A stretch of DNA of 64,000 nucleotides from Candidatus Thorarchaeota archaeon (GCA_038893995.1 JAWAQK010000002.1:20529-84528), one strand, 5' to 3'; positions 1 to 64,000 are shown, counted from the stretch's first letter. The notes: generated by a model from the letters alone, not told the origin. Numbers and translations are program-made.

Positions 1-1
1 A

Positions 2-673
2 CGAATATCGATAGTTGGGGTTGGCAGAGAGATCCCTCTCCATGATCCTACTCTTCTTGACTCCAGTACTCTCAGTACTCTTCAGAGGAACATGATCAGG
101 TTCGAACCGTACTCATCCCAGCAGCTCTATGACATACTGAATGCCAGAGCTAAGATTGCGTTTCAACCAGGTGCCGTGATGGATGAAACCTTACAGCTGA
201 TATGCGACATCGCCTCGGAACACGGAGATGCAAGATATGCAATCGAACTGCTATGGCGCGCTGGCAAGCAGGCCGAACGTGAAAGGTCTGATAGAGTTGT
301 ACCTGATCATGTACGACTAGCTAAATCCGACATTCACCCAGAGATACGAAAAGAGGTCATCACCACGCTCCCTCTTCAGCTGAAGCTGCTGTTACTGGCA
401 ATCGCTCGACAGCTGAGAGAAACTCGCAATGCATATGTGACGATCGGTGAGGTGGAAGACATGTACAGGAGTGTTTGCGAGGAATATGGCGAAGAGCCTC
501 GTACACACACACAGATTTGGACGTGGGTCCAGGATCTTGGTGCACAGGACATCATTGAGGCAAAACGATCCAGTGTGGGCAGAAGAGGACAAACCACGCT
601 CATAGGTCTCTCTGAAGTTCCTGCAGAGATGTTGGAAGAATGTCTCCTTGAACTCATCGAGAAGGATGGATGA
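2..673 (+). CDS. cdc6: Orc1/Cdc6 replication initiator, C-terminal part (5' end outside window)
   Basis: Frame is open from the window edge. The lid/winged-helix region (IRFEPYSSQQLYDILNARA ... TQIWTWVQDLGAQDIIEAK) is typical of the archaeal Orc1/Cdc6 C-terminus. Confidence 0.8.
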   Translation, partial: RISIVGVGREIPLHDPTLLDSSTLSTLQRNMIRFEPYSSQQLYDILNARAKIAFQPGAVMDETLQLICDIASEHGDARYAIELLWRAGKQAERERSDRVVPDHVRLAKSDIHPEIRKEVITTLPLQLKLLLLAIARQLRETRNAYVTIGEVEDMYRSVCEEYGEEPRTHTQIWTWVQDLGAQDIIEAKRSSVGRRGQTTLIGLSEVPAEMLEECLLELIEKDG

Positions 674-962
674 AGTCATGGATACACATGGGAAAGACCG
701 GGTGTCGCTCGAACAGGTATTCTCTTCTAGAGGCAGGATCAAGATCATTAGGGAACTCGCCTTCTCAAACGAGCTAAACATATCAGAGATTTGCAAGAGA
801 GTGGGCCTCAACCACAGCACAACTAGGAGTCATCTTGATGTCCTCATTGCATCAGGCTTAATAGACGAAAAGATGTTTGGCCGAATCAAGATCTACAGAT
901 ACCGTCTCGAGGACATGCGTGCACGTTCACTCAAGAACCTGTTTGAGTTGTGGGAAGCATAG
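648..962 (+). CDS. ArsR/SmtB-family winged-helix transcriptional regulator (alternative starts at 666 or 678)
   Basis: 104 aa with an HTH signature: IIRELAFSNELNISEICKRVGLNHSTTRSHLDVLIASGLIDEKMFGRIKIYRL. Confidence 0.5.
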   Translation: MNSSRRMDEVMDTHGKDRVSLEQVFSSRGRIKIIRELAFSNELNISEICKRVGLNHSTTRSHLDVLIASGLIDEKMFGRIKIYRYRLEDMRARSLKNLFELWEA

Positions 963-1790
963 ATGCCATCGTATCTCTGCAGAGTGTTCTATCTGGGAAC
1001 CAACTACTATGGTTCACAGATTCAGCCCGGCTTACCCACCATACAGGGTGAATTGATAGACGCAATATCCCGCTGGAGTGGCGAAACGCATTCTGAAGAG
1101 TCTGTGAGGCTGGCCGGACGTACTGACAGAGGAGTACACAGCATAGGTCAACTTGTTCTAATAAGGACCGGTCTCCCCATATCGCTGAAAGAAATCAATA
1201 AACAACTACCAGACGATATCACCCTCTGGGCATTTCGTCAGGTTCCCTCAACCTATGAGCCTCGGTTTGAAGTTCTCCTGCGTCACTACTTGTACTGTCT
1301 AGAGATCTCTTCTCTCTCTCTTGACCTTGGGAGGATGTGCAATGCGGCCCGAATGTTGATTGGAACGCACGATTACTCTAGCCTGGCAAAACAAGATGGT
1401 AACAGACCAATGACTACTACTCTCCTGAACATCGATCTGTCCATTGCTGGCAATGTGCTGCTGATTGATGTCTATGGGACTGGCTTCCTCTGGAACCTCG
1501 TGCGTAGAATAGTGACCTTTCTCATGGATGTCGGAGTTGGTTTGCTCCCCGACGACGCCGCAAGGCTGATTCTAGATTCCTCCCCGCCCAGAAGATCTGG
1601 AAACAGGCCTTCCTACCCCGAAGGTCTGATTCTGGTTGAGTCTGCTGTTCCACTCTATCTAGCCCCGGATAAGGGGGCCATCAAGAGAATAAGAAAGACT
1701 ATCGCAACGAAGCTCGCCCTATACCAAAGATTATCGACTTCTCTAACCGTTGTAGATTGGATCACGTCAATGCAGCTTCTCATGGCTTGA
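963..1790 (+). CDS. truA: tRNA pseudouridine(38-40) synthase TruA/Pus1-like
   Basis: 275 aa with the catalytic motif AGRTDRGVHSIGQ (RTDxGVHA-type Asp motif). Confidence 0.75.
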   Translation: MPSYLCRVFYLGTNYYGSQIQPGLPTIQGELIDAISRWSGETHSEESVRLAGRTDRGVHSIGQLVLIRTGLPISLKEINKQLPDDITLWAFRQVPSTYEPRFEVLLRHYLYCLEISSLSLDLGRMCNAARMLIGTHDYSSLAKQDGNRPMTTTLLNIDLSIAGNVLLIDVYGTGFLWNLVRRIVTFLMDVGVGLLPDDAARLILDSSPPRRSGNRPSYPEGLILVESAVPLYLAPDKGAIKRIRKTIATKLALYQRLSTSLTVVDWITSMQLLMA

Positions 1791-2970: not shown

Positions 2971-2973
2971 GTG

Positions 2974-3921
2974 CTATCTGTCTCCCATATGAACTAGAAG
3001 CGCAGTCATCTGGATCTCTCCATCCGCCCCCTCGGATATTCGAAACTCGGCCTCCGCAATTCGTTCGTAGATAGCAACCTGTTCCTTGGCTGACATACTC
3101 ATTTCCTCTACTATCCTGTGGACCTGACGGACCAAGTCATGGGGTGCTATCCCCTCTTGGTAGACCAAGTGTTTCATGATTTTCAATGCTTGTTCTAGTT
3201 TTCCGCCTTGCGACAATGTGATCATTTCCCTGATTGTGGCCGGGTCCGCCTGGCCCGAGATTGAATACACGATCTGACTGTTCAAAGTCTGCTTCAGTGA
3301 CGAGGCTGCCTGCAGCAGATTGATGGCTGCTCTCATGTCGCCCTCTGCAAGATAGAGAATTGCATCCATTCCTGTGTTGACAATCTTCACACCTTCGTTT
3401 TTGGCAATGAACTCTAAGCGCATTCGAATCACGTCGTCAGGGAGACGCGCAAATCGAAAGAGTGCACACCTAGACTGGATTGGTGGTATTATCTTGCTAG
3501 AGTAGTTACAAATCAGGATCATTCGACACGAATTTGCATGAGTTTCCATTGTCCTGCGCAGTGCATGCTGTGCGTCCGGCGTGAGATGGTCTGCCTCGTC
3601 CAGAACAAGTATCTTGAAGGGAGCATCCCCTGCCGGTACTGCACGCGCGAAATTTTTAACCTGATTCCGGACAACATCTATTCCTCTCTCATCGCTCGCG
3701 TTAAGCTCCATGAAGTTCTCATCAAAGGAGTCGCCAAAAAGATCCCGAGCCATTGCAATGGCCGCAGTTGTCTTGCTCGTACCTGGAGGTCCGCTAAATA
3801 GGCAGTGGGGGACGGCCTTTGCTTCCACAAAACTTCTTAGACTCTGAATGATGCTTTCCTGTCCCAAGATCTCCCTCAGTGTGCGTGGTCGGTACTTCTC
3901 GGTCCAAAGGCCCATGTCCAT
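2974..3921 (-). CDS. rfcS: Replication factor C small subunit
   Basis: 315 aa, EKYRP, Walker A GPPGTSKTT, Walker B VLDEAD, SRC motif (IQSRCALFRF). Confidence 0.9.
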   Translation of the reverse strand: MDMGLWTEKYRPRTLREILGQESIIQSLRSFVEAKAVPHCLFSGPPGTSKTTAAIAMARDLFGDSFDENFMELNASDERGIDVVRNQVKNFARAVPAGDAPFKILVLDEADHLTPDAQHALRRTMETHANSCRMILICNYSSKIIPPIQSRCALFRFARLPDDVIRMRLEFIAKNEGVKIVNTGMDAILYLAEGDMRAAINLLQAASSLKQTLNSQIVYSISGQADPATIREMITLSQGGKLEQALKIMKHLVYQEGIAPHDLVRQVHRIVEEMSMSAKEQVAIYERIAEAEFRISEGADGEIQMTALLVHMGDR

Positions 3922-4008
3922 TTCACATCACTCGTCCGCGGGACTCGCACTTAGAAACACCCTCAAAAATAGTTTCACATACTCTCAAAATCGAGGTGCA
4001 AACAAGAT

Positions 4009-4570
4009 GATGTCCCCCCTCTTCGCCGCCCAGGTCGCTGAGCGCGTGCAGATGCTCTTCAACAATGATTTTCGTTCATGTCAGTTCTCAAGGCCACTCC
4101 CCTCCATGAAACTGGGTGACCGTACAATCGGTCCCTTCGATGCCGGGAGCAGGGCTGAACTCCCTAATTGGATGATTGATATCCTGATCAGGAATGGTGT
4201 GGTCGAGTTGATGCCCGAAGATGCACTTGAGTCATCCATGAGAGTCAATAGTGCTAACGATCGTGAGAAGAGAGAGCCCGCTCTGCAGTCTGTCTGGCCA
4301 TACCTCTACTCTGCACTGAGATCCAAGATGCACCGGCTATCGCGCGACGCCTCCGAAATGGATCCGAAGACACATTCGGATCTTCAGACCACTAAGAAGA
4401 ACTTTGAGTCACTCTTGGAGAACCGGCTTACAAAGATCTTGCGGGTAGCCAAGTCCGGTTTCTACCAAGATAAGCTCAAGTTGATGACCTACGAAGAACA
4501 GTGGCTTTGCAAATCCATTGCGGACGTCATTACACGTTGGCGTGTAGCAGTATTGTCGTCTCGACCTTAG
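4009..4570 (+). CDS. GINS complex subunit (Gins51/Sld5-Psf1-like); ORF-track start at 3848 overlaps rfcS and is less likely
   Basis: About 187 aa. An A-domain-like helix with ELPNWMIDILIRNGVVEL (the LPxW(L/M)a..L...G motif of GINS subunits). Sits immediately upstream of mcm, as in many archaea. Confidence 0.5.
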
Positions 4571-10096: not shown

Positions 10097-10232
10097 GGGT
10101 CGGTAGTCTAGCTTGGTATGATACTTGCTTGGGGTGGCCTGTTATTAGTTAGGGCCTCCAATATGCAAGAGGACGGGCGTTCAAGACCGCATGCGACTCA
10201 CGCATGCTCTGGAATTCGCCCCCGGCCCACCA
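10097..10232 (+). tRNA. tRNA-Pro(GGG) with two introns: 29 nt at position 37/38 and 30 nt inside the T-loop
   Basis: Acceptor GGGTCGG pairs with CCGGCCC, then A and an encoded CCA. Anticodon stem CTTGC/GCAAG is perfect; the loop TTGGGG is interrupted by a 29-nt insert containing a GGCC...GGCC hairpin. T-stem GGGCG/CGCCC flanks TTC[30 nt]AATT; the insert holds a 7-bp palindrome GCATGCG-ACTCA-CGCATGC. Confidence 0.6.
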
Positions 10233-10331
10233 CCTTTCCCGATAGCTCACAGATTTCTCCAGTCTGAATCTCTTGATGCGACAACGTTCATCACTAATGT
10301 TATATTCAAGTACCATGGTCCTAGGCATGAT

Positions 10332-10437
10332 GCCGGGGTGTCCCAGCGGCTACGGAGGCGGTCTCGAAGCCATTCAGATGCGGCGATAGAACCGCTGTGC
10401 TTTGCACTCGTGGGTTCGAGTCCCATCCCCGGCGCCA
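10332..10437 (+). tRNA. tRNA-Ser(CGA), class II, with a 21-nt anticodon-loop intron
   Basis: Acceptor GCCGGGG/CCCCGGC plus G and an encoded CCA. Anticodon stem GCGGT/ACCGC, loop CTCGAA, then a 21-nt insert. Long variable arm GTGC-TTT-GCAC. T-arm GTGGG-TTCGAGT-CCCAT. Confidence 0.8.
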
Positions 10438-10470
10438 CCCGATTTCCATGGTATTGTCCACCTATTACAC

Positions 10471-10480
10471 TCTCTTTTCT
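10471..10480 (+). terminator. Oligo-T tract downstream of tRNA-Ser(CGA)
   Basis: TCTCTTTTCT about 35 nt after the tRNA 3' end; archaeal terminators are T-rich. Confidence 0.3.
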
Positions 10481-10512
10481 AGTATTGTGCAAAGCAATCT
10501 CATGGTGGCCTG

Positions 10513-10800
10513 ATGGACTCCATAGGGCAAATGGTCAAGATGGGTCTTAGAGAAAGAGGCATCATCTGTCACTCTGCCTATGTGATTCATGAGGAGTCGG
10601 GATCGATCATACTCCTCTCATTTCCCGCCAAGGAGGGCAATTCCCTTACTCCTGCACGTGTGGAACGTGCACTGAACGCGTTGGGACTGGGTGAATTCTC
10701 AGTGCATAGTGATTTTGCTAGGCTGAGCGCAGCTTTCCTACACCTAGAGGTGTCCATGGGTTCAAGGACAGAATCCGAAAGAGAGAGCAGTGCTCGCTAG
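10513..10800 (+). CDS. Hypothetical small protein (95 aa)
   Basis: The only ORF in 10440-11015 and it does not overlap a better gene; no recognisable motif. Confidence 0.25.
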   Translation: MDSIGQMVKMGLRERGIICHSAYVIHEESGSIILLSFPAKEGNSLTPARVERALNALGLGEFSVHSDFARLSAAFLHLEVSMGSRTESERESSAR

Positions 10801-11015
10801 GGACCGCATCAACACAGTCTTTCCTTGCGTTGGAGCATGTCTCTAGTTCCAACTAGAGAATCCGCCCTTGCTATCTCATACGGCGGCGACTGAGTATTGC
10901 TGACCTGTGTGGACGTCAATTGACAGATTGGACTCCAACCATAAGTGCCGGCTGCCTGAACAACTTTCATGACCTATGGGGTCCATTAGTGCAGTTTGCA
11001 TGACTGTGCTTTTGA

Positions 11016-11160
11016 TGGCGGGCGCGCCAGGATTTGAACCTGGGACATCTTGCTTGCTTCAAGTGACCGTAGAAGACCATTCAAGGATCACAGACCGAAG
11101 GCAAGCGCCCTATTGGCTCTTCGAGGACAATGTCCCGAATCCAAACTAGACTACGCGCCC
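11016..11160 (-). tRNA. tRNA-Arg(TCG), probable, with about 70 nt of insertions: about 25 nt next to the D-stem/position 26 and about 40 nt at 37/38
   Basis: Minus-strand acceptor GGGCGCG/CGCGCCC with G and an encoded CCA. Intact T-arm CCAGG-TTCAAAT-CCTGG. Anticodon stem CTTGC/GCAAG with loop CTTCGG interrupted by about 40 nt. A second insert lies between D-stem 3' strand GGAC and the anticodon stem. Confidence 0.55.
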
Positions 11161-12372: not shown

Positions 12373-13062
12373 CTACCTAGCTGAGCGAGCTACTCGTTCG
12401 CGTTCGTCCTTTCTAGAAACTGCAAAGCTCGCAAGATCTCCCTTGTAGGCCAGAAGCAACTCATCTGCAATGCATTCTTCGAAGGACTTTGCACTGTTGT
12501 GCGTGTTTCTTGATGCCCCTACTACCAGATATCTGAGGGCGATGTCGATTCTACGCTGAGGTCCTATGTCCACGGATCTCGGGTATGCCATACCCCCATA
12601 TGATATTCTGGTCGTTTCCTCGGCAGGAGCTGCGTTCTCGATTGCAGTCACAAGAACCTGAATTGGATTCATTCCAGTGCGGTACTCTATCATCTCAAAG
12701 GCTCTTTTCACGAGTCCTATGGCTCTCGCCTTCTTTCCTGCATTGCGGCCAGTCCGCGTCTTCTTCTCTCGTCTATTGCCTCCGCTTAGGAGCTTGTTCA
12801 CAAATCTCTCAACAATCGGCACCTGCGACTTGTGAAACTTGCGATTTGCATGTCGCCCCGATGTATGTGGTATCAGCATGGGCTTGAGCGAGATATAGCG
12901 TCTGAGACCGACATCTTGCACTTGAACATCATCGGTACTCCATCTTCCAAACAGCAGGAACTTTTCTGCACTGCTATCCCCTGAATGCTGAGTGTCTGTT
13001 TCAATCGGTTTCTCGCCATTCTCCTCTGTAGACTCAGGGGTTCTTCTCTCATCTTCCGTCAT
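12373..13062 (-). CDS. rps7: 30S ribosomal protein S7 (uS7) with an N-terminal extension
   Basis: 229 aa, LLFGRWSTDDVQVQDVGLRRYISL ... conserved S7 core; immediately downstream of S12. Confidence 0.85.
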   Translation of the reverse strand: MTEDERRTPESTEENGEKPIETDTQHSGDSSAEKFLLFGRWSTDDVQVQDVGLRRYISLKPMLIPHTSGRHANRKFHKSQVPIVERFVNKLLSGGNRREKKTRTGRNAGKKARAIGLVKRAFEMIEYRTGMNPIQVLVTAIENAAPAEETTRISYGGMAYPRSVDIGPQRRIDIALRYLVVGASRNTHNSAKSFEECIADELLLAYKGDLASFAVSRKDERERVARSAR

Positions 13063-13067
13063 TCAGA

Positions 13068-13520
13068 TCACCTGATCGGCTTCTCCTTCTTGCCATATAT
13101 GAGGGCTTCCAGAGACACGCCATTCACCTTACATACTCTCCATCTTACGCCGGGGAGATCTCCGTATGCCCCTCCGTAAGCTCCGCCAATGCCCTCGACT
13201 ACGACCTGGTCGTGCTCATCGATGAACTTGAGTCCACCGTCACCCGGTATGAATGCAGTCACTTGCTTACCATTCTTGGAGAGCTGCACTCTGACTGCCT
13301 TCCTTATGGCTGAATTTGGCTGCTTGGATTCGATACCGACCTTCTCAAGGACAATCCCGCGTGCCTGCGGTGCCCCTTCCAGGGGGTCAGTCCTCTTGGC
13401 GAGCTTGAGCACACGCCTCTTGTACTCAGCCTTCTTCCATCGGAATTTCTTGCGTCGGGACTTGAGTGGTCGGGCAGCAAACTCGCCGAGTGGGCTTTTC
13501 GAACGATTCAATTGACTCAT
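13068..13520 (-). CDS. rps12: 30S ribosomal protein S12 (uS12)
   Basis: 150 aa, [13 protein letters not shown] ... KVNGVSL, typical uS12. Confidence 0.9.
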
Positions 13521-13601
13521 CCCCGTTCATTGTTCTCAGTTACTTGCTAGGCAGTGCTCACCACTGGGCTTAACTTAAAAGTATTATGAAAAGGAGGACG
13601 A

Positions 13602-14039
13602 TCAATCTATCATAACACTATCAAGTCCAAAGTGCCTCTTGGCTAACCTTCGCGCACGCTCTACATTCCGTCCGTCCTTGCCTATTGCTATTCCACGATC
13701 CTCAGGCTTGACACTGACAGTCGCCACCAGGGCTCCACTTGCATTTTGACTTATTCTCACTCTCTCAACTCTCGCAGGTGCCAGCGCCCTCTTTACAAAC
13801 TCCTCGGCCGTGTCTGCGTGCTCGACAATATCAACGGTCTTGCCAAGCGCTTCCGATGCTGCACGGACATTTGATCCCCCTTTTCCCACTGCTCGGCCCA
13901 ACTGTTTCTCTCGAACTACAAATATCACTCTGTCCGTTTCATCGTCACGAATGACATCTATAGGAGATACGCCAGTTATCCTCTCGAATGTGGCAATAAG
14001 AGCCATATCTTCCATTGTCAGCTTGAAACTAGGCAACAC
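13602..14039 (-). CDS. nusA: Archaeal NusA-like transcription factor (two KH domains)
   Basis: 145 aa with GRAVGKGGSNVRAASE and GIAIGKDGRNVERARRLA KH motifs; positioned between L30e and S12 as in the conserved operon. Confidence 0.85.
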   Translation of the reverse strand: MLPSFKLTMEDMALIATFERITGVSPIDVIRDDETDRVIFVVREKQLGRAVGKGGSNVRAASEALGKTVDIVEHADTAEEFVKRALAPARVERVRISQNASGALVATVSVKPEDRGIAIGKDGRNVERARRLAKRHFGLDSVMID

Positions 14040-14046
14040 GTCCGCC

Positions 14047-14340
14047 TCATATCAAGTTCAGTATCTTTGAATCGCCAGGATCAATGATTGCAATAGCTGA
14101 AACCATGAATGGTTTTCCAATCAGTTCACCTAGCTCCCACGACGAGCCACTGTACTTGTAGACTGGAACGTTCGCAAGTCTTGCATATCTCTCGATATCA
14201 TTGCTCTCATTGCTGGGACAGTTACCTGAAACGATCACAAGTTTTGCGGTGCCGTTTCTAGTGGCTTGAATGGATGACCTTGTTCCAATATGGCACTTTC
14301 CCGTCCTTACTGCTATTGCTACAGATTGATTGAAACTCAT
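14047..14340 (-). CDS. rpl30e: 50S ribosomal protein L30e
   Basis: 97 aa, GKCHIGTRSSIQATRNGTAKLVIVSGNCP..., L30e/L7Ae fold. Confidence 0.85.
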   Translation of the reverse strand: MSFNQSVAIAVRTGKCHIGTRSSIQATRNGTAKLVIVSGNCPSNESNDIERYARLANVPVYKYSGSSWELGELIGKPFMVSAIAIIDPGDSKILNLI

Positions 14341-14426: not shown

Positions 14427-18305
<3,879 letters not shown>

Positions 18306-18306
<1 letters not shown>

Positions 18307-21300
18307 TAGATCATCTCCTTCAATCTGAGTCTACAGGCGAGACCGAGTGACATCATCTCCTGGATCAGTAGCTTGAACGCATACGATACTACTACGCTGC
18401 TGACCTTCACACTCGGTCCACACACAGGGCAGTAGTACTGGTCCTTGTTTCGGTCGTATACTCCTATGAGCCCACATTGTTCACATACTAGCATGTTGCT
18501 CTTGTCTGACTCATCGAGGAGCCTTCCCTTCAACAGGATTGCTGCGCCATGACCTATCAGCACATCCCGTTCCATCTCACCGAAACGAAGACCTCCTTCT
18601 CTGGCTCTCCCTTCTGTGGGTTGCCTCGTAAGGATCTGCACTGGGCCCCTTGCACGAGCATGTATCTTGTCCGCAACCATGTGATGTAACCGTTGATAGT
18701 ATATCACGCCGATGAAGATGTCTGTCTTAAGCTTCTCTCCTGTGACTCCAGAGTACATGACTTCACGACCATTATACTGGAATCCATGGGACTGCAGGAC
18801 CCTGAATAGCTCATCCTCAGTAACTCCGCAGAAGGGAGTGGCGTCCTGCTGCTTTCCCTCCATGCACCCAGCCTTGCCGGCTATCATTTCCATTATCTGT
18901 CCTATCGTCATCCTGCTTGGAATTGCATGGGGGTTCATGATCAGATCTGGGACAACACCGTCCTCAGTGAATGGAACATCTTCCTGTGGCACGATGTACC
19001 CTATCACACCCTTCTGACCATGGCGTGATGCGAACTTGTCTCCGAGTTCTGGAATCCTGAGGTCCCTGACCTTCACTTTCACGAGCCTGTTACCGTCAAT
19101 GGTTTCGGTCAGTATGACCGTATCTATCACACCTGATTCCCCGTGACGGACCGCATTGGATGTCTCACGCCTATCAGGCAATGGGAACTCAAACTCTGAG
19201 TATTCCTCAAGGAATCTGGGAGGCGATGTCCTTCCTATCAGGACGTCACCTCCCTGAACTTCCACTTCGGTTTCGATGATGCCATCTTCACCAAGATTAC
19301 GATACGACTCAGATGCACGATACCCTCGGACGCTTCGCTCAGGTATCTCAAACTTGTCTTCTTGTCCACCCGGGTATTTTCGTTCCTCACTTTCGTATAC
19401 ACGGGCGAAGCTGCTTCTTCCTAGTCCTCTCTCGATAGAGGCCTTGTTCATTATCAAGGCATCTTCAATGTTGTATCCCTCGAACGATAGCACTGCGACA
19501 ACGAAGTTCTGACCCGCAGGTCTCTCTTCATATCCTATCGAGTCCATTGCACGAGTCTTGACAATGGGAACCTGTGGATAGTGAAAGAAATGCGACCTCG
19601 TGTCTGTTCTGAACTTGAAGTTTGAGGCAGGAACTCCGATTGACTGTTTCGCCATGCCCGCCATGTACACGTTTCTGGGGGATTGATTTCGTTCTGGAAA
19701 CGGTATGAGTGCGGCAGAGATCCCCAGAATAGTTGACGGAACTATCTCCAGATGAGTGGTATTCGGACCTATATTCTCTGGATACAATGCGATCAGAGTG
19801 TTCTCCTCTTCTTCTGCATCCAAGAACTCCACGATACCGTTTCGTAACAGATCTGAGAAACCCCAGGTTCCCTCCGTAATCATTCTGAGATGTTCGTCAG
19901 TCAGTCTGCTACGCCCATTTTCAACGACTATCAGTGGTCTTCTGACACGACCTGCATCGCAGTTTACTTGGACTTCATTCGTCTTCTTATAGTAGGCTAT
20001 GTTGACCTCCTGATCTATTTCGCCTGCTCTTCTTCGTTGACGAATGGTCTTGACAAGCACCTCCGGTGCTGGATGTACTCCTACTAGACGGCCGTTCAAG
20101 AACACGTCTGCTGATTTAGTAGTGCGTTTCCCTCTTATCCTCTCAATGGGCTCTACGTCTGCCTTGATCAGTGCTCTCTCAACCTCCTCCTCGGAGGTTC
20201 CTACTGAGATGTGAGCCATCATTGCGATGTTCTTGACTAGCCCACAGTTGGGCCCTTCGGGAGTTTCATTTGGACAGATCTTTCCCCAGTGTGTTGAGTG
20301 CAGGTCACGTGCCTCGAAATGTGGTTGCGACCGAGAAAGCGGAGAAACAACTCTTCTCAGATGCGACAGTGATGAGATGTAGTTTGTTCTATCAAGTAGC
20401 TGAGACACACCTGCCTTTCCACCGACCCAATTACCAGTTGCAAGTGCATGTTTCATCCTCTGGGTGATCACGTCAGCTCTGACAGCGGTTCTGATGTTGG
20501 GTTTTCTGCCTCTAACTGCGTTTCGCTCGAGCTGGTACTTGATGTCTCTGGTCAGCGAGTAGAGGGCCAGTCTAAAGAGTGACATCAAGAGGTCTCCGGA
20601 AAGCTTCAATCTCTTGTTTGCGTAGTGATCCTTGTCGTCTGGGTCTCGTTTGAGCAGAACTAGTTCGAGGAGTCGCTCGACCATCTGCCCAAGGTAATAT
20701 GCTTTTGCAAGATTGTGTTTCTCTTCTGTACCTATGTGTGGCAGAAAGTATCTCTCAAGGACCTTCTGTGCTCGCACAAGACGGTACTCCTTGGTTTGAC
20801 CGACTGCGACTCGTTTGCCTATGAAGTCGAGTGCATTCTCTCGTGTGGTACCCCCTTCGGCATCAGCCCCAGCATTTATTGGTGCTGCTTGTTCCATCGT
20901 CACAATGAGCTCATTTCGAATCTCCTCATCATCTGAGATGATATCGACAATCTCCTTGTCGGATTCAATACCGAGTGCCTTCATAAGGATCGCGAGCGGT
21001 ATCCTTCCTGGCACAGACGGAAAGACCACACGAAGTTCTCCAGTCCGCTTTCTTTCGATGGTGACTGGTGCCCTGAATCCCTTTGCTGTTGAAAACACCT
21101 TTGCAATATGGGTATAGCTTGAGCTCTTGCTTGCCTCCTCGATCAATACCCTATTGGGCGCCAGATCTTCTTGTGTGACTAGTACTCTCTCTGATCCGTT
21201 GATGATGAAATATCCTCCAGGATCCTTGGGGTCTTCTCCATGTTTGATCAGCTCCTCCGGTGACATGCCATATAGCAGACACTTCTCACTTCGTAGCATG

Positions 21301-21671
21301 ATTGGCAGGTCGCCAATGTACACCCTCTGAGTTTCCATCCTTGTAATATTGGCGCCTTCTTTTCTTACCGGCGTCATCTCCAAGTAAAGCTTGCTTGCAT
21401 AGGTCAGATTCCTGATGCGTGCTTCGTTGGGATAGAGTAGGTGCTCGCTACCGTCTGCCTCCCTCACGGTGGGAGCTTCTACGGTGATCTGGCCGAACTC
21501 CACGTAGTATCCCTCTACCTTCGGAGTCAATCTACCTATGCTATCCACGACTTCCTGGAGTCCGTACTTCACGAAACGGTTAAACGAGTCCAGATGTTGA
21601 CCCACGAGGCCTCTCTCTCTAAAGTAGGCCTCAATCACTGGCCAGTATTTTTGTCGCTCTTCCAGACCCAC
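18306..21671 (-). CDS. rpoB: DNA-directed RNA polymerase subunit B (unsplit)
   Basis: 1121 aa single ORF with a C-terminal zinc ribbon CEQCG...CPVCG. B'/B'' are fused, as in TACK, Thermococcales and Thermoplasmata. Confidence 0.93.
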
Positions 21672-21841
21672 CTTGCCATCACTACCTGACTACTCAGAGG
21701 ACGAAGTAATGTTACAGGTTCCCAAGTGTTCAACATCCTCAGTCTTTGGTCCCATTTGATGCCGACCAGCCACTGTAACAGCCGTCCGTTTTACGCTCTG
21801 CTCGGCCCGTATCTGCAGACCCAGGCATTGAACGTTATACA

Positions 21842-21972
21842 TGGCGGGCTCGGCGGGATTTGCTCCAATACCGAGACACGCTCGGTCCGATTGAACCCGC
21901 AACCCTCAGGTGTCTCTCTCGGTTTCCCTTGAGATAAAAGCCTGCTGCGCTGCCTGGTTGCGCCACGAGCCC
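21842..21972 (-). tRNA. tRNA-Lys(TTT) with two introns: about 23 nt at 37/38 and about 31 nt in the T-loop
   Basis: Acceptor GGGCTCG/CGAGCCC with G and an encoded CCA. D-arm GCGC-AACCAGGCA-GCGC. Anticodon stem GCAGG and loop CTTTTA, then an insert with a TCTC...GAGA hairpin. T-stem GCGGG/CCCGC flanks TTCAA[about 31 nt]AT. Confidence 0.6.
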
Positions 21973-22291
21973 ATGCGGTTCAATCCAGGCGCGATCTGTT
22001 CCTTGTTCGGTACCATCTGGAGTGATGACTCACCCGCTATTGTTCTGACTGGTCACACATGCCTGAGCGGCAGAACTGCCTAGCAACGGAACCGGTGCTG
22101 GAACTGATAAAAGGCTTTCGATGAATCACACATTTCATGACTATGTCATCTCGTCTTACAGTTGTCTGAACTATTCCTTGCGTATCCATTGTCTGATCCG
22201 TCTAGGAGTAGCCATCTGGCCGACAAACTTAATAGGCATTAGGAGTGGCCGTCAATGTGGAGTGCTAGGATACATCTCCGCGTATCGAAGT

Positions 22292-22427
22292 GCCCCTGTG
22301 GTGTAGTCCGGCTAGCATACTAGACTGTCACACTTGGTTGACAGGTGTCCCAAGGGCTAGTCTGGTAACCCGGGTTCAAATTGGGTTGTGGTAAGCACAT
22401 CCCATGAAGGTCCCGGCGGGGGCGCCA
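22292..22427 (+). tRNA. tRNA with two insertions: about 25 nt in the anticodon loop and 30 nt in the T-loop. Anticodon is tentatively CAC (Val)
   Basis: Acceptor GCCCCTG/CGGGGGC (one G-U pair) with G and an encoded CCA. T-stem CCGGG/CCCGG flanks TTCAAAT[30 nt]. Best anticodon arm is AGACT-GTCACA-[25 nt]-T-AGTCT. The D-loop is long and the variable loop would be 6 nt, so the isotype is uncertain. Confidence 0.45.
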
Positions 22428-22438
22428 TCTTCTTTTCG
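22428..22438 (+). terminator. Oligo-T tract after the tRNA
   Basis: TCTTCTTTTCG immediately after the CCA end. Confidence 0.35.
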
Positions 22439-22656
22439 TCCTCTCAGGCTTGTGAACATATGTGAGGGATTCGGTGTGCTTCTCTTCTGGCTATCTGGTG
22501 AGCTTTGGGGACGTTCCCTATTGGCTATATCACTCTCGGACAAGTTTTCCTCTGGCACCTATTCGACGTGTTTGCCATGCCAGTGTTGATCCTTGTTCTG
22601 TGCTGTATCTAGTCACAACGTTTATGTGGAGTTCAGTATCGTTCCTCCTTCGAAGC

Positions 22657-22793
22657 GCCGGGATTTCCTAGCCTGGACGACTCTATGTGTCGGGGCAATA
22701 TGGAGCCAGCCTGCTAAGTTGGTGTGCTTGCACGCGAGGGTTCAAATGGCATCTGCACAGGCCGGATGCCTGAAACTCCCTCTCCCGGCGCCA
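22657..22793 (+). tRNA. tRNA-Ser(GCT), class II, with two introns: about 23 nt in the D-loop and 30 nt in the T-loop
   Basis: Acceptor GCCGGGA/TCCCGGC with G and an encoded CCA. D-arm TCC-TAGCCTGGAC[insert]GGA-G parallels the Ser(CGA) gene. Anticodon arm CCAGC-CTGCTAA-GTTGG. Variable arm GTGC-TT-GCAC. T-stem GAGGG/CCCTC flanks TTCAAAT[30 nt, hairpin GGCATC/GATGCC]. Confidence 0.6.
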
Positions 22794-23195
22794 TGACTCC
22801 ATTGTCGGGCCATTCTCTGTTTCTGAGTGTGACGCTCACGAGTTCATATCTTGAGGTTGGATTCTGCTAGATCTCTTCTACCACGACTCTGTTGACGTGA
22901 TTCTAGGCATTGGCTGCTGAGGTCCCTACATCGCCGGAATCCCGATGCCATGACTTATTCAATCTAGTAAGATTGTACGATTAGGGTGTCGAGTATGGAG
23001 TCGAGAACATGATCTGTCCAACCCTGTGATGTGAGATGTACCAATCCTTCCGACTGAGTCAGAGGGTGTATCACTAGACCGTTCCCATTTGCCACGCAAA
23101 TTCAGTAGCGAGTGGGGTGATGCGGTTCCCGAAACCTGCTGCCTGTAACTGCTGCCATAGAACAGAAAAGAATCGGACTCGGGCCACTCGCCCGG

Positions 23196-23210
23196 TCCGA
23201 AGAAAAGACA
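23196..23210 (-). terminator. Oligo-T tract just after the tuf stop codon
   Basis: The minus strand reads GTGTGTCTTTTCTTCGG immediately 3' of the EF-1alpha stop. Confidence 0.35.
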
Positions 23211-23212
23211 CA

Positions 23213-28326: not shown

Positions 28327-28378
28327 CTGACATACCCTCTTCTGTCTACGCATTCTCACAAGTATTCGGCAAGTAGGT

Positions 28379-28688: not shown

Positions 28689-28750
28689 AAATCTTTACTG
28701 GCCGGCTTCTCATAAAAGGATTCTCCTGGGTTGCATAGTTGTCCAAGTCC

Positions 28751-36188: not shown

Positions 36189-36203
36189 TCGAGGTGTACA
36201 CAG

Positions 36204-36419: not shown

Positions 36420-36420
36420 A

Positions 36421-38599: not shown

Positions 38600-38633
38600 G
38601 CGTTTCTCTTCAGATGTAAGTTCTAACGTGCCC

Positions 38634-39941: not shown

Positions 39942-39950
39942 GCTCTCACC

Positions 39951-41100: not shown

Positions 41101-41178
41101 TGGTGGGCCGGGCCGGATTTGAACCGGCGGCCTCTTGGTCCCGAACCAAGAATCATAGCCAATCTAGACCACCGACCC
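41101..41178 (-). tRNA. tRNA-Pro(CGG), intronless
   Basis: Acceptor GGGTCGG/CCGGCCC with A and an encoded CCA. D-arm GTCT-AGATTGGCTA-TGAT. Anticodon arm CTTGG-TTCGGGA-CCAAG. T-arm GCCGG-TTCAAAT-CCGGC. Confidence 0.9.
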
Positions 41179-46931: not shown

Positions 46932-47180
46932 CTACTCAGATCTTTGCATCTCTGAGAATCTGTCGACAAATGTCCCGTAGACGTCAACCGGTTCAGTTAG
47001 AGAGGTCACCTTCTCGATCGTCATGTCAAGCCCGCACGACCCACATCTGACGGTGGCAATGCCCTCCTCCTGATACACTTCAATCTTTATTGCAACCTCT
47101 CCGCAGTTAGGGCACGCGTACACGTCGGGAATTCGCTTCTGGGGTCGTCGAATCACCTTTTGCCTACGTCTTCTTCCCAT
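46932..47180 (-). CDS. elf1: Transcription elongation factor Elf1 homolog (zinc ribbon)
   Basis: 82 aa with a basic N-terminus, CPNCG...RCGSCG and EPVDVY, matching the Elf1 family. Confidence 0.6.
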   Translation of the reverse strand: MGRRRRQKVIRRPQKRIPDVYACPNCGEVAIKIEVYQEEGIATVRCGSCGLDMTIEKVTSLTEPVDVYGTFVDRFSEMQRSE

Positions 47181-50787: not shown

Positions 50788-53700
50788 TTGAGTGGTCAAG
50801 ATTACTCTCTGCCAAAACATAGCCCAAGCTACGCAGAGTACTTCAGGACGATAAGCGACGAGATTGGAAGGATATACGAAATTGCCTCTCGTGCCAGGGC
50901 AAAGGGCATTGATCCCTCAGAGAAAGTCGAGATCCCGCCAGCACACGATCTTGCTGCCCGAGTCGAGGCCACTCTTGATGGCCCTGTAGGTATTGCAAGG
51001 AGAATCCGCGAGCTGCAAAGATCAATGAGCCGCGAAGAGGTGGCTTTCCAATTAGCACGAGAGGTTGTAGAGGGCCGATTTGGTGAAATAGGCAGCGACG
51101 AAGTGACCAATCCAGCCCTGAGAGAGGAGAAGGCCGCTGACAAGGCGGTCCGTGTTGCTCTCTCCATTCTGACTGAAAGCATAACAGCCGCGCCCCTGGA
51201 GGGAATTGCAAAGGTCAAGATCCATGGTTCGAATGAAGACCGGTACTTGGCCCTCTACTTGGCTGGTCCAATCAGGGCCGCTGGTGGTACCGAGGCAGCG
51301 GTCACAGTACTGGTCGCAGACTACGTTCGACAGGTCCTGGGGTTGCCTCCACTAAGACCTACAGAGAAAGAGGTAGAACGTGCAGTTGAGGAAGTCGAGC
51401 TTTATGCTAGAAACGTACATCTCCAGTATCCCGTGAATTCTGACCTGATACGGTTTGCTGCAAGGCACCTCCCCATCATGCTCACAGGCGAACCTACTGA
51501 AGAGATAGAAGTGTCCGGGACACGAGATCTAGAACGAATTGAAACAAACAGGGTTCGGGGAGGCGCGGTACTGGTTCTGAATGATGGAGTGGTGGGTAGG
51601 GCTGCAAAGTTGGCCAAGATCGTGAATCGCCTGAACATTCCCGGCTGGTCCTGGTTAGACGAGATTGTCGCTAGGACATCAAAGACAAAGAGCATTGAAA
51701 CCGATGACGAACGTCAGAAGCTACTCGCTCCGAAACAAGACTATCTTGTCGATGTGATTGCTGGTCGCCCTGTGTTTTCACACCCATCCAAGATTGGAGG
51801 TTTTCGTGTCAGATATGGTCGATCTCGCAATACCGGTCTTGCTGCAGTGGGGCTCCATCCCGCGACCATGGTCGTTCTCAGTGAGTTTCTCGCATCCGGG
51901 ACGCATATCCGAACAGAGAGACCCGGTAAGGGTTCCATTGTGGCGCCGGTCGACACAATCGAGGGCCCAATCGTCCTACTGGTTGATGGTTCCGTCAGGC
52001 AGCTGAATGATGTGAATGAAGCACGCGCCTGCATGGGATCTATCAAGAAAGTGCTTTACCTTGGCGATATACTGATCGCACTGGGAGAGTTTCTCGAGAA
52101 CAATCATCCCCTTGTACCTTCTGCATACTGCGAGGAATGGTGGTCTCACGACCTAGAGCAGAAGACACAGGCCCTGTCTCGAAATCAGCTCGCGAGCTTG
52201 CTTCGAGATTCTGGAGTTTCTCCAGAAGAGTATGAGTCTTTCGTGCATAATCCACTGACCCACTACCCGACTCCGCAACAGGCAGTCCTGATGTCCAAAC
52301 TACTTGATATTCCATTGCACCCGAGGTATGTATATCGTTGGAATGCGTTGAGCCCGGTAGAGTTTGATGAATTCAGAACCTGGCTTCTGACATCGTACGG
52401 GGAAATAGTGGAAGACGGTCGCAGACTGATAAAAGCGCCTGACAATTCACGATTCAAGGCCATGTTGGAGCGTATTGGTGCGCCTCACAGGTACCTGCAG
52501 GGCTCAAGAGAAATTGTACTCCTTGATGATCCGCTCACTATACTAGAACAGCTCGGCAACAGAGAGCATGAACCACAGGGCTCAACCACGCTCGACGCAG
52601 TCAACTCGGTTTCGAACGTCAGAGTCGGTGACAGACTCGGGTTTCACATAGGTGCGAGAATGGGCCGGCCTGAGAAGGCAGAAGCAAGAAGAATGAAACC
52701 CCCCGTTCAAGTGCTCTTCCCAGTAGGCCGAGATTCCTCAACCGAGAGAAACTTGGAGAGGGTGGCACGAAATCAGGAGTCCTTACCCCCACTGGACACC
52801 TATATGAGTCCCATGGAAACCGGGTATGGAATACCCAGAAACGTCGAAACTGATTCCGGTAGAGGTGTACTGGTAGAGCTGGTTGTGAGAGTGTGTCCTA
52901 ACTGCGGAAACGAGACTTTCGAGCCCATGTGTCCCGTGTGTCGAGTACGTACGCAGGTGAAGCGATGGTGTTCGCAGGAGGGATGCGGTCTCTATGTTGA
53001 CGAGACTAGGGGTCTCTGTCCACGCAGCCACAATGTGAATCTTATCAGATCAACGAAGGTCCGCAGGGTCGATATCGATGCATATCTCGAGCGCGTCAAA
53101 CAGGAGATTTCGGAGAGTGACGCGTTCGATGTCAGAGGGGTACTTGGCCTAACCAGTGAACTCAAGATTCCCGAGTATCTCGGCAAGGGCATTTTGCGCG
53201 CAAAACATGGCGTGTATTGCTATCGAGATGGTACTGCAAGATTCGATGCGACTGATGCACCTTTGACTCATTTCACACCTAAAGAGGTGGGGGCGTCAGT
53301 CGGTCGCCTGCGCAGCCTCGGATACTCAGTTGACTATCAAGGGAACCCGTTGGTGTCCGACGACCAGATACTCGAGTTGAAGGTTCAGGATATTGTCGTG
53401 TCAGAGGCATGCGTTGAGTATCTATTCCGCGTTGGTCAGTTTGTTGATGATTGTTTGGAAAAAATCTACGGGCTGGATCGATACTACCGTTTTGCCAGTC
53501 TTGAGGACCTGATTGGGCATCTGGTCATCGGTCTTGCACCGCACACATCCGCGGGGATTGTCGGACGCATCATTGGCTTCACTGATGCAAGTGTCTGCTA
53601 CGCCCACCCATACTGGCATGCTGCAAAACGCCGCAACTGTGATGGTGATGAGGACTCAGTGATGCTCGTTATGGATGCTCTTCTCAACTTCTCCAAGTCC

Positions 53701-54378
53701 TTCCTACCCGCCGGAAGGGGTGGCTTCATGGATGCTCCTCTGGTCCTCTCGGTGATACTGAACCCACAGGAGGTCGATGATGAAAGTCATAACATGGATG
53801 TCTGCTTCCGATACCCATCTCGATTCTACGATGCAACTCGTCAGATGGTCAGCCCAAAGACCTTTGAACGTGTAGTGGACACTGTCAAGGCTCGTCTGGG
53901 GACAGAGGCTCAGTATGAGGGTTTCGGATTCACGCACGGGACGTCTTCAATTCATATGGGTCCTAGAGTGTCCCGGTACAAATTGTTGAACACCATGGCG
54001 GACAAGTTGAAGGCTCAGCTCGCCCTGGCCAAAACCATAGCAGCTGTTGATCCTCGCGATGTCGCTGAGAGGGTCTTGTCCCATCACTTCATTCGTGACA
54101 TTCGTGGCAATCTCAGGGCCTTTACCACACAGAGGTTTCACTGTTTCAGATGTCGAAGGATTTTTCGTAGAGTCCCGTTGTCCGGTCGCTGCACATGCGG
54201 TGCCCCCCTTTCACTGACAGTGCGGAAGAAAAACATCTCCAAGTATCTTGAGATTGCAGAAACCACGATTGCAGAGCATGGTCTGGGCCCCTACCTATTA
54301 GATCGTCTGCGTTTGATGAAGTCATCACTGGACTCGATGTTTCTCTCTGAGCAGACCAGTCTGACAGATTTCTACTGA
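50788..54378 (+). CDS. polC: DNA polymerase II (PolD) large subunit DP2
   Basis: 1196 aa with the conserved DP2 N-terminus (YFRTISDEIGRIYEIASRARAKGID), zinc motifs CPNCGNETFEPMCPVCR and CFRCRR...CTCG; no intein. Confidence 0.9.
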   Translation: MSGQDYSLPKHSPSYAEYFRTISDEIGRIYEIASRARAKGIDPSEKVEIPPAHDLAARVEATLDGPVGIARRIRELQRSMSREEVAFQLAREVVEGRFGEIGSDEVTNPALREEKAADKAVRVALSILTESITAAPLEGIAKVKIHGSNEDRYLALYLAGPIRAAGGTEAAVTVLVADYVRQVLGLPPLRPTEKEVERAVEEVELYARNVHLQYPVNSDLIRFAARHLPIMLTGEPTEEIEVSGTRDLERIETNRVRGGAVLVLNDGVVGRAAKLAKIVNRLNIPGWSWLDEIVARTSKTKSIETDDERQKLLAPKQDYLVDVIAGRPVFSHPSKIGGFRVRYGRSRNTGLAAVGLHPATMVVLSEFLASGTHIRTERPGKGSIVAPVDTIEGPIVLLVDGSVRQLNDVNEARACMGSIKKVLYLGDILIALGEFLENNHPLVPSAYCEEWWSHDLEQKTQALSRNQLASLLRDSGVSPEEYESFVHNPLTHYPTPQQAVLMSKLLDIPLHPRYVYRWNALSPVEFDEFRTWLLTSYGEIVEDGRRLIKAPDNSRFKAMLERIGAPHRYLQGSREIVLLDDPLTILEQLGNREHEPQGSTTLDAVNSVSNVRVGDRLGFHIGARMGRPEKAEARRMKPPVQVLFPVGRDSSTERNLERVARNQESLPPLDTYMSPMETGYGIPRNVETDSGRGVLVELVVRVCPNCGNETFEPMCPVCRVRTQVKRWCSQEGCGLYVDETRGLCPRSHNVNLIRSTKVRRVDIDAYLERVKQEISESDAFDVRGVLGLTSELKIPEYLGKGILRAKHGVYCYRDGTARFDATDAPLTHFTPKEVGASVGRLRSLGYSVDYQGNPLVSDDQILELKVQDIVVSEACVEYLFRVGQFVDDCLEKIYGLDRYYRFASLEDLIGHLVIGLAPHTSAGIVGRIIGFTDASVCYAHPYWHAAKRRNCDGDEDSVMLVMDALLNFSKSFLPAGRGGFMDAPLVLSVILNPQEVDDESHNMDVCFRYPSRFYDATRQMVSPKTFERVVDTVKARLGTEAQYEGFGFTHGTSSIHMGPRVSRYKLLNTMADKLKAQLALAKTIAAVDPRDVAERVLSHHFIRDIRGNLRAFTTQRFHCFRCRRIFRRVPLSGRCTCGAPLSLTVRKKNISKYLEIAETTIAEHGLGPYLLDRLRLMKSSLDSMFLSEQTSLTDFY

Positions 54379-59011: not shown

Positions 59012-59018
59012 ATCGCAT

Positions 59019-62259: not shown

Positions 62260-62673
62260 CTAGAGCGACTTGATGTAATCGGCGTACTCCGTGTCGTTCA
62301 TGAGCTTCTTCAAATCTGGATCCAGCGACGAGGGTTTCATCTTGAACAACCATCCCGCACCATAAGGATCTTCGTTGACGATCTCGGGCGATTTCTCAAG
62401 GTTCTTGTTGACCTCTATCACTGTTCCAGAGATAGGTGAGAAGACATCTGAAGAGGCCTTCATGGATTCGACCAGGCCGCATGGGGCGCCTGCCTTCAGT
62501 TCTGTACCCACTTCACTTACCTCCACGAAAGTTATCTCGTGGAGCGCATTCTGTGCGTAGTCTGTAATTCCGACTATGACCACATCACCCTCGACCCGTG
62601 CCCATTCGTGGTCTTTCGTGTAGTATAGCCCGGGTACGACCCTTTTCCCATCAGTCATTGAATACACCACCAA
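62260..62673 (-). CDS. gcvH: Glycine cleavage system H protein
   Basis: Lipoyl-lysine motif ESMKASSDVFSPISG, and N-terminal HEWARVEGD. Confidence 0.85.
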   Translation of the reverse strand: MVVYSMTDGKRVVPGLYYTKDHEWARVEGDVVIVGITDYAQNALHEITFVEVSEVGTELKAGAPCGLVESMKASSDVFSPISGTVIEVNKNLEKSPEIVNEDPYGAGWLFKMKPSSLDPDLKKLMNDTEYADYIKSL

Positions 62674-62712
62674 CTTCCCGCATTGTTCGTGCTTAAATGA
62701 ATTCCTTCTCGA

Positions 62713-63852
62713 CTACTGCTGCACCCTGTCTTCTCCGTACCTTCTCGTGTCGTAGAATGGCCAATCAACTACTCTCGCCTTTCTCACCCGACCCTTTATG
62801 TCTATCCCGACCTCGGCTCCTGTACTGACAGTATCAGGTTTGACGTATGCCATTCCAATGCCGTTCTCAAGAGTTGGCGAGAGGCCACCGCTTGTCACCT
62901 CCCCAATCTGAGTGTCATCCAATAGGACCGCATAATGCTGGCGCGGAATTCCTCTCTCTATCATTACTAACCCTATTCGTGTTTTCTTCCCTCCTTTCTC
63001 CTTGTGCTGCCTAACAATGTCGTATCCAATGTAGTGGGGTTCGACCTTGAATTTCACAGCGTAGGCTATTCGCGCCTCAATGGGGGAGGTGTCCTCATCG
63101 AGTTCATGGCCGTAGAGCACGAATCCCGCTTCCAGTCGGGTTGAGTCTCTTGCTCCCAGTCCACACGGCTTTACTCCAAACTCGGCACCCTGGTGAAGTA
63201 GTTCCTCCCAGAATGATATCGCCTTATTCTTACCCTCGGCGGTCATTGGCGTGTCGAGAAGGAGGATCTCGCCCCCTGCTTCTCCTGTGTAACCCGTCCT
63301 GCACAGATAACAGTCGTAGCCCGCCAGCTTCAACCGGTGGCAGCTGAATCGTGGAAACTCACTCACATCTCTACCCGCGAGCCTGGACAGTAGTTCTAGT
63401 GCTCTGGGTCCCTGAACGGCAATCATGCTGACCTCTGCAGATCTATCAATGACCTGCACATTGAAACCTCTTGAATGGTCGATCATGTGTCTGTAGATCT
63501 TTGGCCCGTTTGATGCATTTGTGACCCATATGTATTCCAGATCTCCCACACGGTATAACAACAGGTCGTCCATTACCCCCCCTCTCTCGTTTAGGCAGGT
63601 AGAATAGTGCCCCTCCCCTACTTGCAGCTTGGTCACGTTATTTGTGGTCAGAGTTTGGAGAAACTCCGCAGATTGCGGACCGCTGACAAAGAATCGGGAC
63701 ATATGACTGGTGTCGAATATACCTACACTGTTGCGGACCGCCATGTGCTCTTCCCGGATGTCTGTGTAACGGACCGGCATTTCCCATCCGGCGAATTCTA
63801 CCATGTCGGCATTGTTCACATGCCAGTCGTAGAGTTGTGTTCTCATAGGCAT
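62713..63852 (-). CDS. gcvT: Glycine cleavage system T protein (aminomethyltransferase)
   Basis: 379 aa, LYDWHV...GWEMPV...GIFDTSHM, typical GcvT. Confidence 0.88.
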   Translation of the reverse strand: MPMRTQLYDWHVNNADMVEFAGWEMPVRYTDIREEHMAVRNSVGIFDTSHMSRFFVSGPQSAEFLQTLTTNNVTKLQVGEGHYSTCLNERGGVMDDLLLYRVGDLEYIWVTNASNGPKIYRHMIDHSRGFNVQVIDRSAEVSMIAVQGPRALELLSRLAGRDVSEFPRFSCHRLKLAGYDCYLCRTGYTGEAGGEILLLDTPMTAEGKNKAISFWEELLHQGAEFGVKPCGLGARDSTRLEAGFVLYGHELDEDTSPIEARIAYAVKFKVEPHYIGYDIVRQHKEKGGKKTRIGLVMIERGIPRQHYAVLLDDTQIGEVTSGGLSPTLENGIGMAYVKPDTVSTGAEVGIDIKGRVRKARVVDWPFYDTRRYGEDRVQQ

Positions 63853-64000
63853 TCATAGTCACCTTTATGATGGTTGTTCAATCATAGAACCGCAGCTGTG
63901 CCTCAAAACAGCGACTGACGAGGCATGTCATTTGGTACTGTATAGGACAGTCACGATAAGGAAGCTCAGCTGTGGCCATGGACATGGCCCCCGTGTGATG

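Follow-up and report, generated by a model that had tools for sequence, protein, structure and literature searches.

Does a stretch of archaeal DNA whose marker genes seem to point in several directions come from a new lineage, from two organisms joined by mistake, or from a known one? The question was raised by 64,000 nucleotides deposited under Candidatus Thorarchaeota archaeon (GCA_038893995.1 JAWAQK010000002.1:20529-84528), which we call the window and within which all positions are counted from its first nucleotide. An initial annotation, made from the sequence alone, had read its Elf1 homolog, PolD, unsplit RpoB, AcnX mevalonate genes, multi-intron tRNAs and Arf-like GTPase as mixed lineage signals. 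Our analysis supports, with a probability of about 95%, an ordinary, non-chimeric Thorarchaeota segment that carries the standard Asgard gene set and tRNA genes interrupted by bulge-helix-bulge (BHB) introns. The window is a stretch of chromosome from the class Thorarchaeia, within the Asgard archaea, and belongs to a metagenome-assembled genome (MAG) already in GenBank.

The placement starts from RpoB, which matches an NCBI protein at 100% identity; that protein is recorded under 'MAG: Candidatus Thorarchaeota archaeon' and is encoded on a contig of 109,366 bp. The next 73 RpoB clusters lie at 83–90% identity, and nearly all that are named are Thorarchaeota, with a few labeled Hod-, Sif-, Loki- or Promethearchaeota; RpoB of Hel-, Loki-, Jord- and Freyr-archaea is 65–70% identical. 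When GTDB species (r232) were scanned, each represented by a single genome, ~65 Thorarchaeota with RpoB at 83–89% identity were recovered, and beyond Thorarchaeota a Helarchaeote reached 68% and the rest ≤62%. In a neighbor-joining analysis of RpoB with 500 bootstraps, from which two outgroup sequences were left out (wrong open reading frame [ORF], distance above 2), Thorarchaeota and the window grouped together in 500 of 500 replicates, the window was nested within that clade in 443, and it was sister to A361 plus B65_G9 in 388. The B65_G9 and A361 lineages are probably its nearest sampled relatives.

Genes far from rpoB give the same answer. The PolD subunit DP2, 30 kb away, is a 100% match to an NCBI Thorarchaeota protein, and its next best matches, at 63–67% identity, are again nearly all Thorarchaeota where they are named. 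The best matches of the GTPase, and of the GTPase-rpoD block at 33 kb, are also Thorarchaeota. Since RpoB, DP2 and the GTPase all point to Thorarchaeota, the contig is not chimeric. Ten proteins were sampled along the length of the window, and for nine of them an exact entry exists at NCBI or in Logan; eight of the ten are NCBI Thorarchaeota entries on the one 109,366-bp contig, most of them present in two assemblies. RpoB, DP2, Elf1, the GTPase and others tested have exact matches among NCBI Thorarchaeota proteins, and the rpoA region is identical in an independent Logan assembly contig. GC content is ~51% across the 64 kb and flat (0.495–0.520 in 4-kb bins), without a compositional break.

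How do the supposedly discordant markers fit this placement? Elf1 is distributed among TACK and Asgard archaea, PolD occurs in all archaea but Crenarchaeota, and the presence of Elf1, PolD and unsplit RpoB together in Asgard archaea is established. The genes themselves had been read correctly: profile matches identify Elf1, the AcnX mevalonate genes and the Arf-like GTPase, RpoB is a single ORF, and DP2 lies exactly where the initial annotation had put it. RpoB (18306–21671, − strand) has 1,121 amino acids and Rpb2 domains 1–7. RpoA is split in the usual archaeal manner into A′ (15649–18306, −) and A″ (14427–15635, −), which between them carry Pfam Rpb1 domains 1–5. The 82-amino-acid Elf1 homolog (46932–47180, −), for which no coordinate had been given, was located through its C4 zinc ribbon (CPNC...CGSC); it has a basic N-terminal tail, matches PF05129 (E = 2.5e-18, 66.4 bits versus a cutoff of 29.8), and every match in a PDB sequence search was an Elf1. 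Its exact NCBI counterpart, MEM2141639.1, is named 'hypothetical protein'.

DP2 (50788–54378, +; 1,196 amino acids) contains all three Pfam domains (PF03833, PF24844 and PF24846; N-terminal, central and catalytic; E from 1e-98 to 1e-138) and no intein. The DP1 gene was not seen among the window ORFs scanned, in which no search aimed at DP1 was made, and presumably lies elsewhere in the genome. Some Asgard relatives have intein-sized insertions in RpoB (~1,610–1,630 amino acids) or DP2 (~1,650–1,670 amino acids), most of which have intein-splicing Pfam hits, the exception being the DP2 of P0148; RpoB of the window, like its DP2, is free of inteins.

The mevalonate genes form one cluster on the − strand (37053–40892). 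Mevalonate kinase (39951–40892) matches TIGR00549 with 237.1 bits against an equivalog cutoff of 163. It is followed by a UbiD-family decarboxylase (38634–39941) with UbiD N, core and C domains, which passes only the family-level model TIGR00148, and by the large (37442–38599; PF04412, E = 4.8e-146) and small, or swivel (37053–37445; PF01989, E = 2.9e-34; NF003046, 168 bits versus a cutoff of 163), subunits of AcnX. Judging from these family matches, the two AcnX subunits are a candidate phosphomevalonate dehydratase, and the position of the UbiD-family protein between mevalonate kinase and AcnX makes it a candidate anhydromevalonate-phosphate decarboxylase. The cis-3-hydroxyproline dehydratase model scores AcnX at 295, far under its cutoff of 700, as expected for the mevalonate type. 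No mevalonate pathway is more widespread among Archaea than the archaea-type (AcnX) route, which most Asgard archaea have as well (PMC11052028), so that it carries no lineage information.

Taken together, the unsplit B and split A′/A″ subunits of RNA polymerase, Elf1, PolD, the AcnX mevalonate route and one of the many Asgard small GTPases make up the standard Asgard set of information-processing and lipid-precursor genes. The listed features co-occur in Asgard archaea or have been published for them, so that the 'mixed' signals are not in conflict.

The remaining marker, the multi-intron tRNAs, required a dedicated search. BHB candidates were enumerated and spliced out, and ARAGORN was run on the products; acceptor stems accompanied by T-arms were sought independently in another scan. 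The window contains seven tRNA genes, five with two introns, one with one and one with none, for a total of 11 introns. Most of the genes lie in two islands (10097–11160 and 21842–22793). In the first, tRNA-Pro(GGG) (10097–10232, +) has introns at 10135–10163 (position 37/38, 29 nt) and 10186–10215 (59/60, 30 nt); tRNA-Ser(CGA) (10332–10437, +), parsed by hand and accepted by ARAGORN in its spliced form, has one at 10369–10389 (37/38, 21 nt); and tRNA-Arg(UCG) (11016–11160, −), which the Rfam tRNA model scores at 41 bits with two insertions, has introns at 11114–11140 (D-loop after G19, 27 nt) and 11055–11094 (37/38, 40 nt). In the second, tRNA-Lys(UUU) (21842–21972, −; Rfam 38.9 bits) is interrupted at 21912–21934 (37/38, 23 nt) and 21860–21890 (58/59, 31 nt), tRNA-Asp(GUC) (22292–22427, +) at 22332–22360 (38/39, 29 nt, relaxed motif) and 22381–22410 (59/60, 30 nt), and tRNA-Ser(GCU) (22657–22793, +) at 22677–22698 (D-loop after G19, 22 nt) and 22747–22776 (59/60, 30 nt). 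The intron-less tRNA-Pro(CGG) (41101–41178, −) is found by both ARAGORN and Rfam (56.4 bits).

All seven genes have perfect 7-bp acceptor stems and an encoded 3′ CCA, and ARAGORN accepts all seven spliced products as full-length tRNAs. Six of the 11 introns have strict hBHBh′ motifs; the other five are relaxed (two hBH, two HBh′ and one whose helix H forms 3 of its 4 pairs). On the reversed sequence, and on coding sequence of twice the length, this pipeline called no introns. The multi-intron tRNAs named in the initial annotation are thus real and well beyond chance. For tRNA-Asp, the exon boundaries were set against 78-nt intron-less orthologs; ARAGORN's own choices for the first intron (22343–22368 or 22352–22369) left mismatched anticodon stems and were replaced by 22332–22360 from the ortholog alignment. 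The spliced tRNA-Lys matches its 77-nt intron-less orthologs, and the spliced tRNA-Asp its intron-less Thorarchaeota orthologs, apart from a few scattered base substitutions. We infer that these short introns, in the D-loop and at 37/38, 38/39, 58/59 or 59/60, would be spliced out by a broad-specificity (αβ)2 splicing endonuclease. Such an enzyme, an (αβ)2 EndA with an L1 loop that confers broad specificity, has been described together with disrupted tRNA genes in Asgard archaea, in a survey that included the Thorarchaeota genome SMTZ1-83 (PMC5829648), and in Atabeyarchaeia and Freyarchaeia 92–95% of tRNA genes have introns, more than half of them several (PMC11291895). Multi-intron tRNAs are therefore not restricted to Thermoproteales, of which they had been taken to be a classic trait.

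How well do other explanations account for these data? It could be argued that the contig is a chimera or a mis-binned join, with Elf1 and the multi-intron tRNAs contributed by a TACK archaeon and PolD by a euryarchaeon. The only support for a join is the earlier impression of 'mixed' signals, and it is opposed by the uniform GC content, by the recurrence of the same 109-kb contig in two NCBI assemblies and, in part, in a Logan assembly made independently, by the affinity to Thorarchaeota of RpoB (18–21 kb), the GTPase/rpoD block (33–37 kb) and DP2 (51–54 kb) alike, and by two-intron tRNAs at both 10–11 kb and 22 kb; we consider its probability negligible. The chance that the organism is instead a member of the Bathyarchaeia, Thaumarchaeota or Aigarchaeota is just as slight. 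Elf1, PolD and unsplit RpoB are known to be combined in these TACK groups too, but TACK sequences are missing from the 120 best matches of RpoB and likewise from those (also 120) of DP2, Desulfurococcales RpoB is only 57% identical, compared with 83–90% for Thorarchaeota, and every RpoB bootstrap replicate places the window inside Thorarchaeota. A third view takes the window to represent an Asgard lineage that is new at the level of class or phylum and resembles Thorarchaeota in RpoB only. It can appeal to a DP2 without a relative above 67% identity and to the finding that most of the proteins looked up are the sole members of their clusters at 90% identity. This too is very unlikely, if a little less so, given that RpoB is nested within Thorarchaeota rather than sister to it (443 of 500), that RpoB identities of 88–90% are typical of within-family distances, that across Thorarchaeota the GTPase has 70–84% identity and its place in the gene order L7Ae, G1P dehydrogenase, GTPase, rpoD is retained, and that an orthologous tRNA-Lys-rpoB arrangement is common to Thorarchaeota.

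It might also be proposed that the tRNA 'introns' are artifacts, produced by decaying pseudogenes or an over-fitted search, since five of the 11 have relaxed motifs and standard tools miss most of the seven genes. The absence of calls in the control sequences, the agreement of spliced tRNA-Lys and tRNA-Asp with intron-less orthologs, the conservation of the exons alone across species, and the intact acceptor stems and encoded CCA of all seven genes make this improbable to a similar degree. Several points do weigh against our reading of the window as an ordinary Thorarchaeota segment with spliced tRNAs. Its placement is based on an RpoB distance tree and on the best-match taxonomy of DP2 and the GTPase. 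The best non-self DP2 match is only 67% identical, and the source is therefore a distinct species or genus within the class. The Elf1 homolog scores 81.5 bits with NF011482, under the equivalog cutoff of 109. Finally, the EndA genes lie outside the window, and splicing is deduced from BHB geometry and the agreement with orthologs.

Having weighed these points, we retain the Thorarchaeota reading. Of the lineages that the initial annotation had put forward, an Asgard-like one was correct; the RpoB tree and the ~65 relatives show Bathy-, Thaum- and Aigarchaeota, and a poorly sampled lineage, to have been wrong. RpoB falls firmly inside a characterized group (500 of 500 bootstraps) in which tRNA introns have been published, and this is essentially the outcome that the initial annotation had itself named as a refutation. 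Its proposal of what might be a new lineage, marked by conflicting genes, is refuted by that standard: the window belongs to a Thorarchaeota contig that was known before, and its genes are those to be expected of an Asgard archaeon. As a separate observation, the relatives of DP2 in a set of 5.8 billion proteins do not exceed 67% identity, and those of RpoB reach 90%; either PolD has diverged to an unusual degree in this lineage of Thorarchaeota, or close relatives have yet to be sampled.

How stable are these introns? We compared tRNA-Lys(UUU) orthologs upstream of rpoB from 59 related genomes, nearly all Thorarchaeota and one a Helarchaeota-labeled MAG. Thirteen are intron-less (77 nt), 44 have one intron and 2 have two, as does the window copy; the single introns occupy at least five sites, including 37/38, the variable loop, 53/54, and 59/60 in the T-loop. 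For tRNA-Asp, orthologs have no intron in five genomes, one in nine, two in three and three in one. Nucleotide-level conservation between species is limited to the tRNA exons. This pattern indicates that tRNA intron positions probably turn over quickly, through rapid gain and loss within Thorarchaeia. In the literature that could be searched, we found no account of such turnover in Thorarchaeia. It adds to a phenomenon already known rather than being a feature of a new kind.

The Arf-like small GTPase (33468–33965, +; 165 amino acids) belongs to a class of proteins whose expansion is a hallmark of Asgard genomes. It matches PF00025 (E = 9.6e-14, 51.7 bits versus 22.3) and has G1–G4 motifs GSGYAGKS, T38, EMGGQ and NKQD. 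The closest PDB matches are Arl8, Arl2 and entries 8ouk–8oun (deposited as 'Arf GTPase'), which we take to be the structures of a preprint on Asgard ArfR proteins. The P-loop starts at residue 11, and the ~10 residues ahead of it leave no N-terminal amphipathic helix. As that helix is the defining feature of Arf in the ArfR preprint (bioRxiv 10.1101/2024.02.28.582541), the protein is best called Arf-like rather than a true member of the Arf family. Between its gene, whose neighbors span 31869–37056, and the likely start of rpoD downstream (34104) there are 138 nt. The order L7Ae, G1P dehydrogenase, GTPase, rpoD, L18e, L13 is kept, as far as contigs reach, in 24 of 24 related metagenomic loci, across which the identity of the GTPase is 72–84% versus 58–73% for RpoD; across Thorarchaeota it is 70–84%. 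A 55%-identical homolog retains the rpoD arrangement, and homologs in Baldr- and Ranarchaeia (≤48% identity) are without rpoD linkage. The linkage to rpoD hints at a housekeeping role.

Two further speculations may be offered, both tentative and less likely to hold than not. Thorarchaeia may be a natural laboratory of tRNA-intron mobility, in which introns were recently gained in a burst, the lineage of the window being among those with the most. Separately, the helix-less GTPase at the head of the rpoD/ribosomal-protein cluster may have a housekeeping function connected with transcription or translation instead of membrane trafficking.

The initial annotation had also described proteins rich in S, T and Q with a mesophilic look. 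Neither description held up among the 52 Pfam-supported genes used for composition: S+T+Q is an ordinary 15.1%, D+E+K+R is 25.5%, and the IVYWREL fraction of 0.4345 corresponds to ~72°C by the Zeldovich formula, so that mesophily is unsupported. The composition of RpoB alone does not separate Thorarchaeota from thermophiles. Because the gene set is biased to information-processing proteins, growth temperature is unreadable from the window in either direction.

Pfam and NCBIfam scans identify the window as a typical archaeal information-processing region, ~86% of which consists of ORFs with Pfam support. Replication is represented by the Cdc6/Orc1 C terminus, both RFC subunits, MCM, a Hel308-type helicase, an Lhr helicase and RPA, in addition to DP2. 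One transcription and translation block comprises EF1-alpha, a spacer with tRNA genes only, rpoB, rpoA′ and rpoA″, and then L30e, NusA (KH domain), S12 and S7 (12373–14340, −; Pfam). In the other, L7Ae and G1P dehydrogenase (−) face the small GTPase (+) and the genes for rpoD, L18e, L13, S9, rpoN and S2 (33978–37056, +; Pfam and translation). The window also encodes aIF5B, L44e, S27e, aIF2-alpha, the STT3/AglB oligosaccharyltransferase and glycine-cleavage genes, besides Elf1 and the mevalonate kinase/UbiD-family/AcnX cluster.

Several smaller observations concern the spaces between these genes. The 1.5 kb that separates EF1-alpha from rpoB (21672–23212) consists of three tRNA genes and unconserved spacer only; rpoB has no rpoH upstream and EF1-alpha is not followed by S10, which departs from the usual archaeal arrangement. 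A conservation check of 21973–23212 for more tRNAs or conserved RNAs found nothing but tRNA exons conserved. An 84-amino-acid ORF that abuts EF1-alpha (22959–23213) was treated as non-coding, as it has no family match and the surrounding spacers are unconserved in relatives, and the other small ORFs of the tRNA islands, also without family matches, were treated in the same way. An archaeal signal recognition particle (SRP) RNA lies at 28378–28689 (−); it scores 81.9 bits, and would be missed by default annotation because this is under the Rfam gathering score of 96.5. Two ORFs that overlap it (28356–28667 and 28654–28965) are spurious. The 579-nt gap between the divergent rfcS and mcm genes, in the replication-gene cluster (3922–4500), was considered as a replication origin and set aside, as it lacks both an AT-rich stretch and repeats that form a convincing family; for a 240-amino-acid ORF in this gap (3848–4570), no Pfam match was found.

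What follows from these results? They settle the question of lineage in an unremarkable way: the source is a known Asgard class, the sequence is already in GenBank, and its genes are those expected. The practical lesson concerns annotation, since default tools miss most of the intron-bearing tRNA genes. With default settings ARAGORN finds one of the seven genes and none of the six that contain introns, and Rfam at its gathering score finds two, one of them intron-containing; tRNA counts used to grade the quality of Asgard MAGs will therefore be too low. Relaxing Rfam to E < 1 recovers three genes, two of them with two large insertions each, along with a weak tRNA-Sec match at the Ser(CGA) locus. 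tRNA-Asp(GUC) escapes both Rfam and default ARAGORN. The turnover of tRNA introns and the linkage of the GTPase to rpoD are small leads.

How does the window compare with systems that are already known? Its mevalonate kinase, UbiD-family and AcnX genes adjoin on one strand and resemble the archaea-type mevalonate pathway, reportedly characterized in Aeropyrum pernix; the difference is that the isopentenyl-phosphate kinase and UbiX genes lie outside the window, and that the pathway is known here from genes alone. The GTPase shares with Asgard ArfR proteins the Pfam Arf-family signature and structure matches to Arl8, Arl2 and 8ouk–8oun, but it differs from them in having no N-terminal amphipathic helix and in its fixed position beside rpoD in Thorarchaeota; its G3 motif is EMGGQ, in contrast to the DxGGQ of Arf.

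The intron-rich tRNA sets attributed to Thermoproteales by Sugahara in 2008 and Fujishima in 2010 are said to have short BHB introns, several per gene, that vary between relatives, and frequent gain and loss of tRNA introns, as described there, is a likeness to Thorarchaeia. The tRNA genes of the window likewise resemble those of Atabeyarchaeia and Freyarchaeia, with short BHB introns at canonical and non-canonical sites, several per gene and variable among relatives (PMC11291895). Unlike in all three of these groups, the lineage here is Thorarchaeia, and the sample consists of the seven genes of one window.

The window also resembles other Thorarchaeota MAGs (for example B65_G9, A361, SMTZ1-45, SMTZ1-83 and AB_25, as well as CP070658 and CP070761, which are closed chromosomes), which have RpoB proteins 83–89% identical to that of the window and share with it the orders tRNA-Lys-rpoB-rpoA′-rpoA″ and L7Ae, G1P dehydrogenase, GTPase, rpoD, L18e, L13. 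The window differs from them as a separate species-level lineage, with a best RpoB identity of 89% among GTDB species genomes and 90% in the protein collection and a best DP2 identity of 67%, and in its tRNA-Lys, which has two introns, whereas 57 of 59 orthologs have none or one.

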